A DNA stretch of 64,000 nt from Halorussus marinus (GTDB taxonomy: Archaea; Halobacteriota; Halobacteria; Halobacteriales; Haladaptataceae), in NCBI RefSeq assembly GCF_004765795.1, contig NZ_SBIV01000001.1, forward strand, positions 62,001-126,000. Direction: 5' to 3'. The notes beneath the pieces are model-generated. The model was given only the letters and a program-made list of their open reading frames with translations, did no database searches and had not been told where the DNA came from. The first letter of the stretch is position 1, and the number at the start of each line of letters is the position of its first letter. Shown piece by piece: positions 2,965-31,215 of this stretch. The translations under genes were made by a program, and so were the position numbers.

Positions 2965-3079
2965 AGGGTCGTCCTAAACCTCTCTAAGGAGAGTAATAAA
3001 GCTTGCCGAGAAGTGCCACACTGTCGGAGGGGGCCGGCTTCGAGCCGCCGGTCGCGGGAAACGGGCGGTTGCGCGTCGC

Positions 3080-24505: not shown

Positions 24506-24577
24506 TGCGGTAGCTGTGCAGTGGCGGTAGTGCGGTGGCTGTGCAGTGGCGGTAGTGCGGTGGCTGTGCGGTGGCGG
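24506..24577. repeat. Tandem repeat of the 25-bp unit GCTGTGCAGTGGCGGTAGTGCGGTG
   Basis: Exact copies at 24513-24537 and 24538-24562, partial copies on either side. Confidence 0.9.
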
Positions 24578-24601
24578 GGCGGTTGCGCACGAGACATTGT
24601 A

Positions 24602-24706
24602 CCGCGAGCGAACGCAGTGAGCGGAGCGAACGGTGCGAGGAGCGCGGGTTTCATCGACGTTTTACAAGCGAGCGCCGCTCGGGGCGCGAGCGCACTAAAA
24701 GGTCGA
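24602..24706 (+). repeat. Structured dispersed repeat, copy A
   Basis: CCGCGAGCGAA...TTTCATCGACGTTTT-hairpin-AAAAGGTCGA; 26 nt (24598-24623) identical to 30732-30757. Confidence 0.85.
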
Positions 24707-24855
24707 CGGGCGTGACGGGATTCGGAACCGGAGCAAGACGGTCCGGGCGTGCGGCCCTGCGGGCCGTTCCGGGCTGTGGCTTGTGGGGTTCGAACCCGCA
24801 CGCTTCGTTCTCGGTCTCGCGTTGCTCGACACGAGAACGGGCGTGACGGGATTCG
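24706..24855. mobile_element. Putative 131-bp tRNA-integrated mini-element bounded by a duplicated tRNA 3' end
   Basis: 19-bp direct repeat ACGGGCGTGACGGGATTCG at 24706-24724 and 24837-24855; interior forms two hairpins. Confidence 0.55.
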
Positions 24856-24910
24856 AACCCGCGGTCGGGAGGTTAGGAACCTCCCGCCCTCTCCACTAGG
24901 CCACACGCCC
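24838..24910 (-). tRNA. tRNA-Arg (anticodon CCT)
   Basis: Acceptor GGGCGTG/CACGCCC, anticodon arm GGAGG-TTCCTAA-CCTCC, T arm GGTTCGAATCC; CCA not encoded. Confidence 0.96.
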
Positions 24911-24923
24911 CGCGAAAAATCGG

Positions 24924-25172
24924 TTATTCGGTGGTCCGCTCGGCGTCGGTCTCGCTCGTCGTCGTCTCGGCGTCGACGCCGCCTTCCTGCATCTCCTTGA
25001 GCTCCTCCTCGACTTCCTGGCGCCCCTTCTTGAACTCGCCCATCGCCTCGCCGGTCGAGCGGGCGAGCTTCGGAATCTTGTTCGCGCCGAACAGCAGGAC
25101 GGCGATGAGGAGGATCACCATCATCTCCATCCCGCCGGGAATCGGGCCGAACAGTGGAATCATCTGTACCAT
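24924..25172 (-). CDS. tatA: Twin-arginine translocase subunit TatA
   Basis: PGGMEM...LLFGANKIPKLARSTGEAMGEFKKG. Confidence 0.95.
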   Translation of the reverse strand: MVQMIPLFGPIPGGMEMMVILLIAVLLFGANKIPKLARSTGEAMGEFKKGRQEVEEELKEMQEGGVDAETTTSETDAERTTE

Positions 25173-25295
25173 CTCTGTTCGGAGATAGCCGATTCTGGAC
25201 TATATGCTTTTTGCTCGGTGTAGCGCCTCGGGAACCGACCCCGCGGCGTCGACTCCGGAACTGTCTTGTCTCCGACACCGAGACGTCTACACACG

Positions 25296-25775
25296 ATGGT
25301 AGACGTAGGCGATCACGCACCCGACTTCACCGCACCGCTCGCCGACGGCGACGTCTCGGAGTTCACCCTCTCGGACCACCTCGACGAAGCGCCGCTCGTG
25401 CTGGCGTTCTTCCCCGGCGCGTTCACCAGCGTCTGCACGGCGGAGCTCTGTACGTTCGAGTCCGAGCTCGCCGCCTACGAGGACGTCGGCGCGACGGTGT
25501 ACGGCATCAGCGTCGACTCGCCGTTCGCGCTGAACGAGTTCCGCGATCGGGAGGGACTCAGCTTCGGGTTGGTCAGCGACTCCAACAAGGGGATCGTCGA
25601 CGACTACGACGTCGTGATGGATTTCGCCGACCTCGGCTACTACGGGGTCGCCAAGCGCGCCGTCTTCGTCGTCGACGGGGACCGAACGGTCACCTACCGG
25701 TGGGTCAGCGACGACCCGGGCGTCGAACCCGACTACGACGCGGTCGAGGCGGCCGCCGCCGACGCCGCGGAGTAG
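25296..25775 (+). CDS. Peroxiredoxin (AhpE/BCP-like)
   Basis: VGDHAPDF, FFPGAFTSVCTAE peroxidatic Cys motif, KRAVFVVD. Confidence 0.9.
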   Translation: MVDVGDHAPDFTAPLADGDVSEFTLSDHLDEAPLVLAFFPGAFTSVCTAELCTFESELAAYEDVGATVYGISVDSPFALNEFRDREGLSFGLVSDSNKGIVDDYDVVMDFADLGYYGVAKRAVFVVDGDRTVTYRWVSDDPGVEPDYDAVEAAAADAAE

Positions 25776-25840
25776 CCGCCCCGACCGGTCGCCGGCCGCG
25801 GGCCGAGAGCTTTTATCCGCTGGCGACCGAGATGCACCGT

Positions 25841-26662
25841 ATGAGCGAAATCGACGAGACCGACGACCGGCGGCGGGTGTACGACCCCGAGGACGACCAC
25901 CCGTTCCCGGACGAGCGACTCAACGAGGTGTTGGCGTTCATCGACGACGACCCCGAGATTCAGACCTACCTCCGCGCCCAGAACGTCAATCCGGTCGATC
26001 GGAAGGGGTACAACGACCACGGGAGCAAGCACATCGAGATCGTTCGCGACCGGGCGCTTGCTCTCTACGAACTCCTCAAGGACGGCGGCGTGGAGTTCAA
26101 CGGCGCGGCCGATCAGGGCCTGACCGAGGCCGACGAGAGCGTGATCATCGCACTGGCGGCGACGATCCACGACATCGGCCACGTCGTCCACCGCGACGAC
26201 CACGCCTACTGGTCGATCCCGCTCGCCGCGGACCTGCTCGATCGCGTGTTGCCCGAACTCGGCTTCTACGACACCGAGGAGACCGTCCGCGTGAAAGGCG
26301 AGATCCTCCACGCGATCCTGTGTCACCACACCGAGGAAGACCCCCTGACGACCGAGGCCGGCGTGCTCCGGGTCGCAGACGCCCTCGACATGGAGATGGG
26401 CCGCTCGCGGATCCCCTACGAACAGGGCGGCCGGGGGATCAACACCGTCTCGAGCCAGGCCATCCAGCGGGTGTCGCTGATGGAGGGCGGGTCGGTCCCG
26501 GTGCTCGTCGAGATCGAGATGCTGAACGCCGCGGGCGTCTTCCAGGTCGACAACCTCCTGAAGGCGAAGTTGCAGGACTCCGGGCTCGAAGAACTGATCC
26601 GGATCGTCGCGGTCAACATCCGCGAGGACGGCAACCAACTGGTCGAGCGCGTCGAACTCTAG
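25841..26662 (+). CDS. HD-domain metal-dependent phosphohydrolase
   Basis: YNDHG, IHDIGH, LCHH, ADALD. Confidence 0.9.
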   Translation: MSEIDETDDRRRVYDPEDDHPFPDERLNEVLAFIDDDPEIQTYLRAQNVNPVDRKGYNDHGSKHIEIVRDRALALYELLKDGGVEFNGAADQGLTEADESVIIALAATIHDIGHVVHRDDHAYWSIPLAADLLDRVLPELGFYDTEETVRVKGEILHAILCHHTEEDPLTTEAGVLRVADALDMEMGRSRIPYEQGGRGINTVSSQAIQRVSLMEGGSVPVLVEIEMLNAAGVFQVDNLLKAKLQDSGLEELIRIVAVNIREDGNQLVERVEL

Positions 26663-27768
26663 CGGACCGACTCGTAGACGCTCCGGAGCCGTTCGACCGC
26701 TCGCTCGACGCTGGTCGCCTCGCGTCGGTCGAGACACGTCTCTCGGAGCTCCTCGCGGGCCCCCAGTGTCCGACGGATCGCCGCCCGGAACCCCTCGATG
26801 TCGCCGCTCTCGTAGTGGAATCCGGTTTCGCCCTCCCGGATCGTGTCGGCGAGCGCGCCCGCGTTCGCGCCGACGACCGGCGTGCCACACGCGTTGGCTT
26901 CGAGCGCCACCAGCCCCTGCGTCTCGACCGGGCTCGGGAACGCGAAGGCATCGAGCGCCGAGTAGAACGCGGGGAGGTCCTCGCGGTCCAGAAAGCCGAG
27001 GAACCGGGCGTCGGCACCCAGCCTCTCGGCCTGTGCTTCGAGGTCGTCGCGGGCCGGCCCGTCGCCGCCGAACACGACGGTCACGTCCATGTCGGCCGCC
27101 GCCATCACGAGCTCCGAGAGGCGCTTCTCGTAGCCGTGGCGCCCGGTGTAGCCGATCAGCGGGCGGTCGTCGTCGCCCGGGAGGTCGTAGCTGTCGAGGA
27201 AGTCATCGGTCTCGACGGGGCGGAACCGCTCGGTGTCGACGCCGTTCGGGACCACCTCGACGGGGGTGTCGACGCCGACCTCCTCGCGCAGGTGGTCGCG
27301 GGTCGACCCGGAGGGCGCAAGCACCGCGTCGGCGCGGCCGAAGAACCACCGCTCGTACACCTCCGAGAGCCGACCGACCAGCGACGCCACGGTCTCGGTC
27401 GGGGCGACGTACTCGGCGTACTCGCTGGTCGGCGTGTGGTACGAGGCCACCAGCGGGACGTCCCGGTCGCGCGCGAGCCGGAGCCCGCCCAGCCCGATGC
27501 TGAACGGCGTGTGAGCGTGGACGACCTCGGCGTCCCTGACCGCCTCGGGAATCGTGGGCGTGCCGAGTCGGAACCCCTCGTAGAACGGGAACGGGAGGCT
27601 CCCGACGGGGTGTTCGCCGTCGGTCGGTCGGTGGCCGTCGGCGCTCGGGTAAACCACGTCCATCCGCCCGCCTGCCCGCTCCCAGCGGTCGCGCCACGAC
27701 GCGATCGTGTAGGTCACGCCGTTGACGGTCGGGAGATAGGTGTCGGTGAACGCGGCGACCTGTTCCAT
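26659..27768 (-). CDS. Glycosyltransferase family 4
   Basis: FTDTYLPTVNGV, HAHTPF, ETQGLVALEA. Confidence 0.93.
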   Translation of the reverse strand: MEQVAAFTDTYLPTVNGVTYTIASWRDRWERAGGRMDVVYPSADGHRPTDGEHPVGSLPFPFYEGFRLGTPTIPEAVRDAEVVHAHTPFSIGLGGLRLARDRDVPLVASYHTPTSEYAEYVAPTETVASLVGRLSEVYERWFFGRADAVLAPSGSTRDHLREEVGVDTPVEVVPNGVDTERFRPVETDDFLDSYDLPGDDDRPLIGYTGRHGYEKRLSELVMAAADMDVTVVFGGDGPARDDLEAQAERLGADARFLGFLDREDLPAFYSALDAFAFPSPVETQGLVALEANACGTPVVGANAGALADTIREGETGFHYESGDIEGFRAAIRRTLGAREELRETCLDRREATSVERAVERLRSVYESVR

Positions 27769-27801
27769 TGTCGGCCTCTTTGGGAACCGATAGTTAAGAC
27801 C

Positions 27802-28821
27802 TTATGAAGTCTGGCCGGCGCCGGAGTCGCCAGCGAGGTCGCGGTACAGTTCGACGAGGTCGTCGCCGACCGCTTCGATGGTGAACGCCTCGCTTTTGGC
27901 CGCGGCGTTGGCCCCGATGCGTTCGCGCAGGTCCGGATCGCGCATGGCGTCGAGTTCGGCCTCGAAGTCCCCGGTCGCCTTCAGGCAGTGAGTCCCGTCT
28001 TCGAGCCAGTCGTAGGTGGGGATGTCCCGGATCACGAGCGGCTTGCCACAGCCCATCGCTTCGAGGAGCGCGATGCCCTCGTTCTCGTTTTTCGACGGCC
28101 AGAAGAAGACGTCGCCCGCGGCGAACCCGCCCCGGACGTCCTCGATGTAGCCGGTGAACGTGCAGTTGTCGGGCGCGCTCTCGACCAGCCGCTTGGTGTC
28201 GCGGCTCTTGAGGACCCGATCGAGTTCGCCGCCCGCGGGGTTGAGATAGCCGAACCACACGAAGTCGAGGTCGGGCATCGCCCGCGCGGTCTCGACGAAC
28301 GCCTCCAGTCCCTTGCGCTTGATGACGTGGCCGACGTTGAACACCACCGGCGGATCGAGGTCGTAGCGGTCGAGATACTCCTCGCGGAGGTCCTCGAACC
28401 CCGCGAGCGCGTCGGGGTCGAACCCGTTGCTGATGACCGTCTTCGGGGCGTCCGCGTACCCCGCGACGACCTCGCGGTTGTGGTCGGAGGGACACACGAG
28501 GTGGTCGGCCAGCGAGTAGGCGTACTCCAGATACGGCCCCATGGGCTTTGCGAGGAGATTCGAGAACGCGAAGCTCTCCCGGAAGTCCTCGGCGGTCTGG
28601 TGGGCGTGGACGAGGACGGGGACGCCGCGCTGTCGGGCCTTCCGCGCGTAGTAGATCGACTTCGGGCCCATGTTGTTGAGGTGGAGCAGGTCGGCGTCGA
28701 GCGTCGGCTCGGTGGTGTACGCGACGCCCCGGCGGTCCATGATCTCGCGCTGGTTCGCGACCGACTGGGCGTGGCCGCCGGTGATGTACGCCTCCCACTC
28801 GAAGTAGTGGCTCACCTTCAT
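27802..28821 (-). CDS. Glycosyltransferase family 4
   Basis: VIKRKG, PSKNENEGIALLEAM (EX7E), VIRDIP. Confidence 0.92.
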   Translation of the reverse strand: MKVSHYFEWEAYITGGHAQSVANQREIMDRRGVAYTTEPTLDADLLHLNNMGPKSIYYARKARQRGVPVLVHAHQTAEDFRESFAFSNLLAKPMGPYLEYAYSLADHLVCPSDHNREVVAGYADAPKTVISNGFDPDALAGFEDLREEYLDRYDLDPPVVFNVGHVIKRKGLEAFVETARAMPDLDFVWFGYLNPAGGELDRVLKSRDTKRLVESAPDNCTFTGYIEDVRGGFAAGDVFFWPSKNENEGIALLEAMGCGKPLVIRDIPTYDWLEDGTHCLKATGDFEAELDAMRDPDLRERIGANAAAKSEAFTIEAVGDDLVELYRDLAGDSGAGQTS

Positions 28822-28955
28822 AGTCGTTCGCGGCCGGCGAACCGGCCGTCGGTGTGGGGGCGAAGACGCGGCCCGGCCAAAATCCTACCGGAACGCACCC
28901 GCCCGACCCGGAAGAAATCGAAAACTATTTACGTTGTTCGTAGGATGACCCCCAT

Positions 28956-28998
28956 GGGGCAACTCAGGATACCTTCTATCCTTGTCCTGGTTCGCCCC
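28956..28998 (+). other. Hairpin in the leader of rnp4 (candidate ncRNA or structured 5' UTR)
   Basis: GGGGC-AAC-TCAGGA pairs with TCCTGG-TT-C-GCCCC around a 15-nt pyrimidine-rich loop; TATA-like TATTTA near 28926. Confidence 0.45.
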
Positions 28999-29023
28999 GG
29001 AAACCCCCACCCCCCATTCCCAC

Positions 29024-29302
29024 ATGTCCATAGCCGAAGAACGCATCGAGCGCCTCGCCGGCCTCGCTCGCGACGCCGCCGCCGAGTGTCGCGACGACCG
29101 CGCCCGGGAGTACGTCCGACTCGCCCGCCGACTCGCCGAGCGCAATCGCCTCTCGCTCCCCCGCGATTTCCAGCGGTTCGCCTGCGACGCCTGCGACGCC
29201 TACCTCCGCCCCGGGAAAAACGCCCGGGTCCGCCTCCAGGACGGCCACGTCGTCCTCACCTGCGACTGCGGGTCCCACGCCCGATACCCCTACGACTCCT
29301 GA
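29024..29302 (+). CDS. rnp4: Ribonuclease P protein component 4 (Rpp21)
   Basis: IAEERIERL, CDAC...CDCG zinc ligands, RYPY. Confidence 0.93.
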   Translation: MSIAEERIERLAGLARDAAAECRDDRAREYVRLARRLAERNRLSLPRDFQRFACDACDAYLRPGKNARVRLQDGHVVLTCDCGSHARYPYDS

Positions 29303-29373
29303 GTTCGCGCCGTCGCGTCGCGGTCGTCACCCGTTCCATGCCCTTTAAGCCGCTTCGTTTCCCAGAACGGGGT

Positions 29374-29619
29374 ATGACCGACGAGGACCTCCGTAAACAG
29401 GCCCACGACCTCGACGTGACCGTCTGGGTCGGCAAGGCCGGCATCGACTCGGTGACAGACGAACTCGCCGACCAACTCCAGGACCGCGAGCTCGTGAAAG
29501 TCAAGTTCCTCCGGGCGGCTCGGGGCGGCACGACGACCGACGACCTCGCCGAGGAGCTCGCGGACGCGGTGAACGCCGACCTGATCGAGACGCGCGGGAA
29601 CACCGCGACGCTCCACTGA
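29374..29619 (+). CDS. YhbY/CRM family RNA-binding protein
   Basis: LRKQAHDLDVTVWVGKAG...ELVKVKFL; TTTAAG about 30 nt upstream. Confidence 0.92.
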   Translation: MTDEDLRKQAHDLDVTVWVGKAGIDSVTDELADQLQDRELVKVKFLRAARGGTTTDDLAEELADAVNADLIETRGNTATLH

Positions 29620-30497
29620 TGGTCGAAGCCCTCCCGTTCCTCGAATCCGCGCTCGGAAGCTACGCGCTCGCGGTGACCCAAGCCCTCTACTTCGTCGTCT
29701 CGTTCGCCGCGATCTATCTGGCCGGCCGGCTGACGGTCGTGCCGCTGGTCGGGCGCTTTCTCGATCGGCGCGACCTCGACAGGCACGCACGGCGACCGCT
29801 GGTGAAGCTGACGAAGTTCGCCGTGGTGTTCGTCGCGGTCTCGGTGGCCTTCGGGTTCGCCGACTACGGCAACTTCCTCACCTCGCTGGCGACGATCGCG
29901 GCCGCGGCCACCCTCGCCATCGGCTTCGCGATGCAGGACGTCATCGCCAACTTCGTCGCGGGCGTGTTCATCTACACCGACGGGCCGTTCAAGATCGGCG
30001 ACTGGATCGAGTGGGACAACGGCAGTTACTCGGGGGTCGTCGAGGACATCGGCCTCCGGGTCACCCGGGTCCGGACCTTCGACAACGAACTGCTGACGGT
30101 GCCAAACTCCCAGCTCACAGACGGCGTGATCAAGAACCCGGTCGACGGCGAGCGCCTCCGGCTGAAGTTCCTGTTCGGGATCGGGTACGACGACGACATC
30201 GATCGTGCGACCGAGATCATCGTCGAGGAGGCACGATCTCACCCCGACATCTTGGACGACCCCGCGCCGTCGGTCCGACTGACCGAACTCGGCGACTCGT
30301 CGGTCGGCCTCCAGTCGCGCATCTGGATCGACGATCCGAGCCGGGCCGACTACGTCAAGACTCGCGGCGAGTACGTCACGAGCGTCAAAGAGCGGTTCGA
30401 CGAGGAGGGAATCGACATTCCGTACCCGAACCGCACACTCGAGGGCGGACTGGAGCTGACGAACGTCGAGGGACAGATCGAGCCCACCGACGACTAA
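29619..30497 (+). CDS. mscS: Small-conductance mechanosensitive channel
   Basis: AIGFAMQDVIANFVAG, PFKIGDWI, VPNS, GIDIPYP. Confidence 0.93.
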   Translation: MVEALPFLESALGSYALAVTQALYFVVSFAAIYLAGRLTVVPLVGRFLDRRDLDRHARRPLVKLTKFAVVFVAVSVAFGFADYGNFLTSLATIAAAATLAIGFAMQDVIANFVAGVFIYTDGPFKIGDWIEWDNGSYSGVVEDIGLRVTRVRTFDNELLTVPNSQLTDGVIKNPVDGERLRLKFLFGIGYDDDIDRATEIIVEEARSHPDILDDPAPSVRLTELGDSSVGLQSRIWIDDPSRADYVKTRGEYVTSVKERFDEEGIDIPYPNRTLEGGLELTNVEGQIEPTDD

Positions 30498-30499
30498 CA

Positions 30500-30636
30500 C
30501 AACCTTTTGCAGCGGTCGGCGCGTGAACGCGCCTCCCTTGGAAAACGTTGATGAAAAACCTGCGTCACCCTTTCAGTCGCTTCGCTCCTTCGGGGGTTCC
30601 TCGGTCCGCTCGCTCGGGCTTCGCCTTCGCTCGCGG
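30500..30636 (-). repeat. Structured dispersed repeat, copy C (inverted relative to A and B)
   Basis: Reverse strand reads CCGCGAGCGAA...GGAGCGAAGCG...TTTTTCATCAACGTTTTCCAAG-hairpin-AAAAGGTTG. Confidence 0.85.
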
Positions 30637-30735
30637 CGGATGACCGTGTACGACGGAGAAGGGACGAGCCAAGCGAGAGTAGGATGCGTCTCGGCTGGTG
30701 TCGCGTTCCGTTGCGGTAGAGTACGAGTCGCTGTA

Positions 30736-30877
30736 CCGCGAGCGAACGCAGTGAGCGAGCGGACAAAGCGACGACCGGAGCGAAGCGGAGGGAGGAGCGC
30801 CGTGTTTTTCATCAACGTTTTCCAAGCGAGGGAGTGACGAGCCGACGGCTCGCCCTCCCGAGCGCAGTAAAAGGTTG
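30736..30877 (+). repeat. Structured dispersed repeat, copy B
   Basis: CCGCGAGCGAA...GGAGCGAAGCG...TTTTTCATCAACGTTTTCCAAG-hairpin-AAAAGGTTG. Confidence 0.85.
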
Positions 30878-30884
30878 TATGAAT

Positions 30885-31193
30885 AGGTGGACGGCCGGCG
30901 TTGCCCGGCGTTCCGCGTCGGGGAGTCCCGGTCGCGTCCTCCACCCCGCAACCCTGCGAGCGATAGCTGTCCAGTGGTCCGGTGCTCACTTCCGTGCCTG
31001 ACGGATTGCCACCGGCTAACCTCGACTGCGACGCTCCTGCGAGCGTCCGCCGAGGACCGCTATCCCCGCAGGACGAGGCTTCGAAGTCGGCTTCCGGGGC
31101 CCGGCGCGGTCTGACCGGACGCCTCCGGGGTTCGGCCCCCGCTAAAGACCATAGTGCGGGTGGAGAGCAGGGCCTAACTGCCCGACCTAGTCC
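30885..31193 (-). ncRNA. ffs: Archaeal signal recognition particle (7S) RNA
   Basis: 5' GGACTAGG, helix 8 CCGTCAGGCAC-GGAA-GTGAGCA, about 310 nt; 3' end approximate. Confidence 0.92.
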
Positions 31194-31215
31194 ATCTCGG
31201 AGTAGTCGCCCCGGA

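Follow-up and report, generated by a model that had tools for sequence, protein, structure and literature searches.

A small gene-less DNA repeat of haloarchaea with a covarying mirror tract, a predicted triplex cap and a fixed 3' end at gene edges

Within a 64,000-nucleotide window of the Halorussus marinus genome (assembly GCF_004765795.1, contig NZ_SBIV01000001.1, positions 62,001 to 126,000), three copies of a short DNA repeat, termed A, C and B in order of position, sit among housekeeping genes (Table 1); the protein labels given here are readings of the sequence. Copy A has as neighbours an open reading frame (ORF) that we take from its sequence to be phosphoribosyltransferase-like, and tRNA-Arg(CCT). 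Copies C and B stand between an ORF of 292 amino acids, presumably a small mechanosensitive channel as read from its sequence rather than from a family search, and the gene of the signal recognition particle (SRP) RNA, whose 3' end lies 7 nt from the 3' foot of B. The 5.8 kb between A and C hold ordinary genes.

The copies are modular, with a 5' GA-zipper hairpin, at least one variable middle module and a conserved 3' core. In the core, a T-tract is followed by S-R-T, C-R-A, S-S, TTTT, a variable stem-loop, AAAA and the 3' foot GG-T-Y-G; its linker is fixed at 8 nt, and in some copies extra hairpin pairs are nested within the stems. An earlier sequence-only reading of this DNA had placed three copies of one architecture at these positions, and had described outer and inner stems, GA/GA closures, GNA triloops and a 5' module of the form CCGC-GA-GC...GC-GA-GCGG. 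All of these are present in the window, the 5' module being complete in B and C. Two details were revised. The outer stem of A is real, but the extra T-A pair ascribed to it falls outside the element, since copy A ends at 24705 and a tRNA 3'-end duplicate starts with the A at 24706. The G.G mismatch, taken to be constant, occurs in the three window copies but is not fixed across the family: among 191 distinct copies, 154 carry one G.G at either of two adjacent positions, 29 carry none and six carry two.

Table 1. Positions in the window of the three copies, their cores and the adjoining features
Feature	Position	Strand	Description
Copy A	24602..24705	+	Degenerate 5' GA-zipper module and core hairpin; third-strand tract cut to 3 T
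Core of A	24649..24705	+	T-tract 24649-24651; linker and base stem 24652-24659; T4 24660-24663
Core of A, continued	A4 24697-24700; 3' foot GGTCG 24701-24705	+	After the inner stem-loop; basis: sequence, family covariation
tRNA-Arg 3'-end duplicate (24706-24730) and structured spacer	24706..24837	-	Abutted by A
tRNA-Arg(CCT)	24838..24910	-	Host feature towards which A points
292-aa ORF	29619..30497	+	TAA stop 30495-30497, 2 nt from 3' foot of C
Copy C	30500..30636	-	5' GA-zipper module, middle module, core hairpin
Core of C	T5 third-strand tract 30554-30558; T4 30542-30545; A4 30505-30508; 3' foot GGTTG 30500-30504	-	
Copy B	30736..30877	+	Back to back with C, 99 nt between
Core of B	T5 30805-30809; T4 30818-30821; A4 30869-30872; 3' foot GGTTG 30873-30877	+	
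Archaeal SRP RNA gene	30885..31197	-	RF01857, 181 bits; host feature towards which B points

The three-copy family proved to be part of a larger one. A profile (nhmmer) built from 30 pattern hits gave 62 matches in the 3.76-Mb host genome (99.97% complete), whose relatives and acidic proteins point to a haloarchaeon. At E<=1 these came down to 52 copies without overlap, while the reversed genome, which served as decoy, gave no match; three of the 52 are weak (E 0.04-0.24), and two further copies were found later. All 52 lie on eight high-GC contigs, and contigs C5, C7, C11 and C12 carry none. A strict pattern matched 116 of 301 Halobacteria genomes, some whole genera being without a match, and 19 of 201 genomes phylum-wide; the controls gave 0 in both scans, with the reversed pattern in the Halobacteria. 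Genome and metagenome collections were scanned up to a limit of 80 loci with DNA each. Among the matches listed, the same core was present in records labelled Woesearchaeota, Micrarchaeota, Undinarchaeota and Methanosarcinales, in one Actinomycetota and one Clostridia record and in gut contigs. Duplicate loci, and four pattern hits in which no hairpin was present (L051, L059, L066, L068), were removed ahead of counting. Between 3 and 11 copies per genome occur in five small archaeal genomes. Outside the halophiles the element is often the core of about 30 nt alone, and the haloarchaeal copies and the minimal forms of other archaea have one common core. The three window copies described by the sequence-only reading are confirmed; the mirror tract, the 3' polarity and the spread beyond haloarchaea were not part of it.

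The T-tract at the 5' side of the core mirrors the stem. Over 302 distinct cores, the two were compared within contiguous pyrimidine-purine stems (positions 4-8). Opposite an arm T, the tract held T in 434 of 465 cases, C in 16 and, rarely, A (6/465); arm C lay opposite tract C in 49 of 66 cases. Exact mirrors reach 10 nt, in at least ten different patterns, and the T-run lengths of tract and arm covary (rho 0.67; 0.72 for halophile-like cores only, n=114). Such a 5' T-tract, which covaries with the stem as its mirror image, is the hallmark of a triple helix within one strand, and the folded strand would form a hairpin of one DNA strand capped by a short T.A-T triple helix, as predicted from this covariation. 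Triplet numbers are 3-4 in the window copies, 3-6 in halophiles and 6-10 in some low-GC members. Furthermore, in 289 of 302 cores, and in 29 of 29 from this genome, the base that adjoins the tract on its 3' side is the complement of the one that adjoins the arm on its 5' side. Because of this complementarity, the tract-side base, the arm-side base and the first G of the foot nearly always comprise two G and one C, and the G.G mismatch probably belongs to a base triple. In terms of the triplex classes of Holder et al. (PMC4666352), the folded strand fits class IV (T.A-T and C.G-C) and its complement class II. Class IV folding by the strand that carries the GA and GNA motifs is favoured because tract A facing arm T, which class II tolerates, is rare.

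The base stem covaries as well. At its variable pair (position 2), where the search pattern permitted all four combinations, the 191 distinct cores have G-C in 119, A-T in 71, A.C in one and G.T in none. Other base triplets (GAA/TTC, CCA/TGG) also occur, each with the matching partner. RNAalifold returned nine pairs, three of them with compensatory changes. The single-stranded-DNA-type features noted in the window were counted over 131 GC-rich copies. Triloops of the c(GNA)g type closed by perfect hairpins numbered 94, with all four bases at N, against 11 in dinucleotide shuffles, and tandem GA motifs 307 (shuffles 49) against nine tandem TC; the RNA-type tetraloops GNRA (9 vs 7) and UNCG (3 vs 3) were not enriched over shuffles. 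In DNA, triloops of the GNA type have unusual stability, and tandem GA pairs make sheared steps. One strand is therefore marked, and marked as DNA. The reverse triloops were also in excess (36 vs 5), which shows that some inner hairpins are flipped.

The 3' junction, which could be placed in 45 of the 52 genome copies, lies at gene edges. Where a convergent gene is faced, 29 of 34 copies end within 10 nt of its stop, whereas only 2.6% of intergenic positions do so as background. A and B are among the five exceptions, and both of them end at RNA ends (the script mis-called the end of B). Among co-oriented copies, 5 of 11 end 39-42 nt ahead of the start. The 5' ends are scattered, at distances of 13-718 nt. 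Similarly, among 73 copies of other halophiles, with genes called by our own codon model, 24 of 35 have their end 0-4 nt away from a stop, while 13 of 38 end 39-41 nt and 19 of 38 end 39-48 nt ahead of a start. The start-facing feet lie directly upstream of sequence resembling the B recognition element (BRE) and TATA box, a placement for which we assume the usual promoter geometry. Low-GC copies also adjoin promoters, start codons and the 5' starts of tRNAs. As stops, starts, tRNA and promoter edges are all abutted, any functional boundary can halt the foot, whichever way the gene is oriented. Stop codons next to the foot were TAA or TAG in 25 of 29 cases, compared with 378 of 854 (44%; p=1e-5). 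That the element supplies its own stop codon was ruled out, as TAA and TAG stops exist at empty orthologous sites; targeting of RNA 3' ends was ruled out too, because promoters and tRNA 5' starts are abutted.

In some low-GC archaea the core lies within tRNA genes. The 127 copies in loci of <=58% GC were put to a loose splice test, which lets in chance hits (L074, L221 and L231 look wrong). It was passed by 15; three more lie within introns called by ARAGORN, 24 have a tRNA within 200 nt and the other 85 are found at different places. The clean cases (L042, L057, L149, L154 and L164) come from two genomes labelled Woesearchaeota. In these, excision restores the T-loop at 59/60, TTCR/YGAA forms the central helix, in which L164 shows a compensatory change, and CAACC/GGTTG of the element forms the intron-closing helix. 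In other low-GC cases the element is merely inside the intron, in either orientation (L196, L208). The predicted T-loop introns of the five clean cases were missed by ARAGORN.

Could the element act as RNA? It might be a terminator or an aid to 3'-end formation or splicing, its U-run terminating transcripts after the stop and its tRNA copies moving by reverse splicing. We regard this as decidedly unlikely. The transcribed strand indeed opens with CRACC-UUUU directly after stops and the SRP RNA, and the 18 low-GC copies inside predicted tRNA introns, with 24 more nearby, would suit it. The marked strand, however, is antisense to the abutting gene, so that at stop-codon sites the stable features are on the non-transcribed strand, and copies upstream of promoters lie outside the transcript. 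The lack of GNRA and UNCG enrichment and of a G.U wobble at the variable stem pair also speaks for DNA, and purine-motif triplexes do not form in RNA, as stated in PMC4666352. No reverse transcriptase was found in four of five element-bearing genomes, four of them incomplete. Rfam gave nothing at the gathering threshold over the elements in the window, and nothing at E<=10 over B and C. The structured non-coding RNA that the sequence-only reading had offered as one possibility is unlikely, given the Rfam result and a folded strand that is antisense to the abutting transcript.

Orthologous sites differ between relatives. Read by eye, the SRP site (copy B) holds an element or remnant, of differing subtypes, in 12 of 20 relatives and is empty in eight; the site of A is filled in 5 of 20 genomes of the genus, and two other sites in about 17 and in 8 of 20, with different subtypes and nearly the same end base. 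At the site of C, a full copy was found in none of 24 relatives, two or three of which have a possible decayed arm. Contigs of one sequencing run represent a near-identical strain over A and part of C, without an informative joint. Sites are thus gained, lost and swapped between congeners, in agreement with the REP-like, non-autonomous behaviour anticipated from the window. Beyond the foot, 14 of 225 copies are followed by a repeat of DNA that lies 77-277 nt upstream (control 0); the duplication joins are exact in five rows, and one to five of the first six bases differ in nine. Newer copies are also joined into the right arm of older ones. These tandem duplications and copy-into-copy joins are events of one end only, with the foot as anchor. 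Many copies survive as remnants or have internal deletions.

A boundary element selected by the host, be it a supercoil sink, an insulator or a protein landing site kept by gene conversion, would account for the site filled in about 17 of 20 congeners, for one gene end that bears the element in at least seven loci and for neighbours that are mostly housekeeping genes. Nevertheless, other sites are filled in only five or eight of 20 congeners, decayed copies abound and whole genera are without a strict match. We therefore consider such a role highly improbable.

Instead, we favour, with a probability of roughly 0.5, small and likely mobile repeats whose 3' foot is cut or freed by a trans-acting, structure-specific protein and re-joined to new DNA. 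The strand would fold while transiently single-stranded into the triplex-capped hairpin, and the 3' foot would become a free end, to be re-joined nearby or elsewhere. A downstream join would delete flanking DNA until purifying selection halts at the first essential base, which may be why the same end is met at stops, promoter edges, tRNA and SRP RNA ends and intron splice motifs. An upstream join would give a duplication, and a join into another copy a replacement of the subtype. Haloarchaeal copies may have grown from the core of about 30 nt by the addition of GA-zipper and GNA mini-hairpin modules. A protein acting in trans is favoured because of the fixed geometry and of precedents: hairpin repeats with a trans-acting single-strand enzyme are described for REP/TnpA-REP (PMC8266576) and for NTS/Ssn (PMC11893778).

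Several results weigh against this reading. The folding energy of the copies, on either strand, was no better than that of shuffles (nearest-neighbour, z -0.1 to +0.8), which leaves covariation and the counts of motifs as the basis of the case; here, common descent of the copies means that covariation counts overstate independent events, and several stem positions were set by the search pattern. Halophile copies offer only 3-6 triplets. The excess of TAA and TAG stops requires an added target preference, and orientation showed no relation to local GC skew as a sign of replication-strand bias (p=1.0, with weak skew). No clean filled/empty pair with both flanks shared was found among the congeners, because these are about 85% identical and their intergenic DNA cannot be aligned. 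Clustering of neighbour ORFs revealed no recurring non-housekeeping family. Among 142 short neighbour ORFs, taken from the loci of <=58% GC, Pfam gave no match to HUH, GIY-YIG, DUF559 or HNH; single HEPN, PIN, Fic and Toprim matches and one weak integrase-core match were obtained, none recurrent. Finally, a copy lay within about 1.5 kb of none of 39 genes for Y1, TnpB, GIY-YIG, reverse transcriptase or DUF559.

The sequence-only reading had looked to HUH transposases (TnpA, RAYT) as the enzyme, with the element as a PATE or REP moved by an IS200/IS605-type Y1 transposase. Its REP-like build (5' tag and imperfect hairpin, strand-specific) suits such an enzyme, HUH chemistry would agree with a 3'-OH set free at the foot, and Y1 genes exist in 204 of 301 Halobacteria genomes. 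However, this genome has no Y1_Tnp match. Y1 occurs in 75 of 116 element-bearing and 129 of 185 other genomes (p=0.38, the genomes not being independent), six of the ten copy-richest genomes are without Y1 and four have it, and a copy is found within 1.5 kb of none of 20 loci (13 Y1, 7 TnpB). The 5' tract acts as mirror strand, and a search for pairing of guide and flank, as known from IS608, gave no z above 2.5 in 30 tests. Stop codons and promoter elements explain an excess of purines at +6/+7. In archaea, moreover, only the IS200 subclass was seen, according to PMC6006769. The link to HUH enzymes is thus not supported, and we judge a Y1 mechanism very unlikely. Other enzymes fared no better: none of 15 GIY-YIG loci in seven element-bearing genomes is flanked by the element, the DUF559 gene present in one of five genomes has no element beside it, the ORFs between paired copies are housekeeping, and no split element flanking an ORF was found. 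An integron attC site was considered and dropped, since the neighbours are core genes and the base triplet varies (CAA, CGA, GAA, CCA). About 2 kb from the Actinomycetota copy lies an ORF resembling a PD-(D/E)XK nuclease (L039 1-534), without sign of linkage.

The negative enzyme hunt suits a scheme that needs no enzyme of its own. A nascent strand would snap into the capped hairpin once the foot is made, peel off and re-anneal by a few bases, and host replication and gene conversion would spread the element. Its presence in several archaeal lineages, some bacteria and two viral contigs would be in line with this, as would the nine of 14 duplications that differ at one to five of the first six post-foot bases, as if by a short foreign tail. 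PIT elements stall DNA polymerase in vitro, yet had no replication effect in vivo in E. coli (both as reported in PMC4666352). Against it, the fixed 8-nt linker and strict pairing across domains resemble protein recognition, and end-slippage is weakly seen: TCG follows GGTCG in 7 of 148 cases compared with 0 of 134, a difference confounded by GC, and TTG shows no such excess. We hold this route to be unlikely. The same applies to a broader and speculative version of it, a selfish cross-domain element of pure structure in which a capped hairpin of about 30 nt, using host machinery alone, would eat 3' DNA to the first essential base, accrete modules in haloarchaea and found tRNA introns in small archaea. 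There, introns at the T-loop 59/60 and canonical positions would be founded because the element's arms supply the closing helix and the T-loop partner in the splice motif.

In its action the element resembles a REP and in its build a triplex repeat of the BoxC/PIT kind, while it fails the defining tests of REP/RAYT, PATE, Ssn/NTS, MITEs (small transposable elements with inverted repeats) and TM(ECO). With BoxC/PIT/TM(ECO) (PMC4666352) it shares a hairpin with a mirror third tract in three blocks, a dispersed, intergenic and sometimes back-to-back arrangement and a tie to local instability, likewise without a known enzyme; the covarying mirror tract on a pyrimidine-purine hairpin that characterizes PIT/BoxC is present. 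It differs in being archaeal, short and A/T-rich, its core of T/A tracts departing from the G/C-rich TM(ECO) consensus, and in having an 8-nt linker, an extra 3-bp base stem, a G.G contact and accreted GA-zipper modules. Its distance to gene features is fixed, whereas TM(ECO) lie at 10-310 nt with no trend. The 3-4 triplets and 8-nt linker of the window copies also fall outside the ITxF definition (stem of at least six triplets, loops of 1-6 nt).

With REP/BIME/REPIN-RAYT (PMC8266576, PMC6006769, PMC3733652), the element has in common an extragenic, multi-copy, strand-specific imperfect hairpin with conserved 5' tag and mismatch, frequent abutment to stop codons and mosaic growth. In contrast to REP, there is no GTAG or CGTC tag at the foot, the tag TTTT-S-R-T being the mirror tract; no RAYT is adjacent or correlated (0/13 Y1 loci), and there is one fixed junction at the hairpin foot. 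The PATEs, SMRs and MITEs of Haloquadratum walsbyi (PMC3119063) are likewise short, transposase-free repeats with palindromes, no terminal inverted repeats and mutual nesting. PATE ends, however, are like IS605-type ends, and the element lies within 1.5 kb of none of seven TnpB and nine haloarchaeal Y1 loci, nor at any of the 20 Y1/TnpB loci overall; this separation is by description, and the published PATE and SMR tables (S8, S9) could include a member of the family. From MITEs it is set apart by 5' and 3' ends that are unrelated modules and by duplications that are tandem units of 77-277 nt. The repeats of Ssn nucleases (NTS/SRM, PMC11893778) are also one-strand hairpins that would be read only as single-stranded DNA, but have another consensus, and 0/15 GIY-YIG loci are flanked by the element. 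Finally, transposed archaeal tRNA introns (Fujishima et al. 2010, as cited in 10.64898/2026.10.13.758758) resemble it in that related introns with bulge-helix-bulge ends occur in different tRNA genes; here, the closing helix is a repeat that is also free between genes, which concerns low-GC archaeal members only and not the window copies. No published description of the family was found in the searched literature, including by exact core strings, a search whose scope excluded subscription journals and the Haloquadratum supplements. New here are the one core shared by halophile and low-GC archaeal forms, the finding of a triplex signal in the halophiles and numbers for the polarity of the 3' end.

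Archaea thereby gain a REP/BoxC-like repeat that is abundant and whose natural covariation speaks for an intrastrand DNA triplex, a kind of structure that evolutionary evidence has rarely backed. The sharp one-sided footprint at stops, promoter edges and RNA ends makes the mechanism testable in a genetically tractable haloarchaeon, and the 3' foot is a practical marker of promoter edges and gene ends in unannotated genomes. The family bears on the spread of triplex repeats without a known enzyme (PMC4666352) and on the arrival of archaeal tRNA introns (10.64898/2026.10.13.758758). A protein that reads this fold, if found, would be a new structure-specific single-strand enzyme.

Some further observations concern the surroundings of the copies. 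Behind tRNA-Arg(CCT) (24706-24837), this genome and most congeners have variable tandem arrays of tRNA 3'-end duplicates with interleaved GA/GNA hairpin modules (L339-L357), and a similar duplicate follows another tRNA of this genome (contig C2, near 530,100). These arrays are a second, separate modular repeat family associated with tRNA ends. Upstream of A, a low-complexity tract rich in GCGGT/GCAGT (24510-24590) has counterparts ahead of many copies in this and other halophile genomes. A tRNA-Ser called by ARAGORN within the end of a protein ORF (25707-25782) is absent from the Rfam results and is probably a false call.

Mobile-element collections yielded few matches: the long pattern matched no viral contig, the short pattern two with one copy each, the plasmid collection gave one weak match and the phage collection none. 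In the two viral contigs (L211 and L212, both 3001-3030), the minimal core lies between an ORF end and the ribosome-binding region of the next ORF. In gut-type bacterial contigs (L223, L233, L236, L241, L244, L252, L254, L263, L264, L277, L279, L289), a conserved second hairpin module follows 3' of the core, which is internal to a longer repeat there. A methanogen-type genome carries a 27-nt minimal core three times head-to-tail (L192, near 1500), and in the host genome two opposed copies with one common internal hairpin form a two-headed element between two genes (contig C6:52665-52796).

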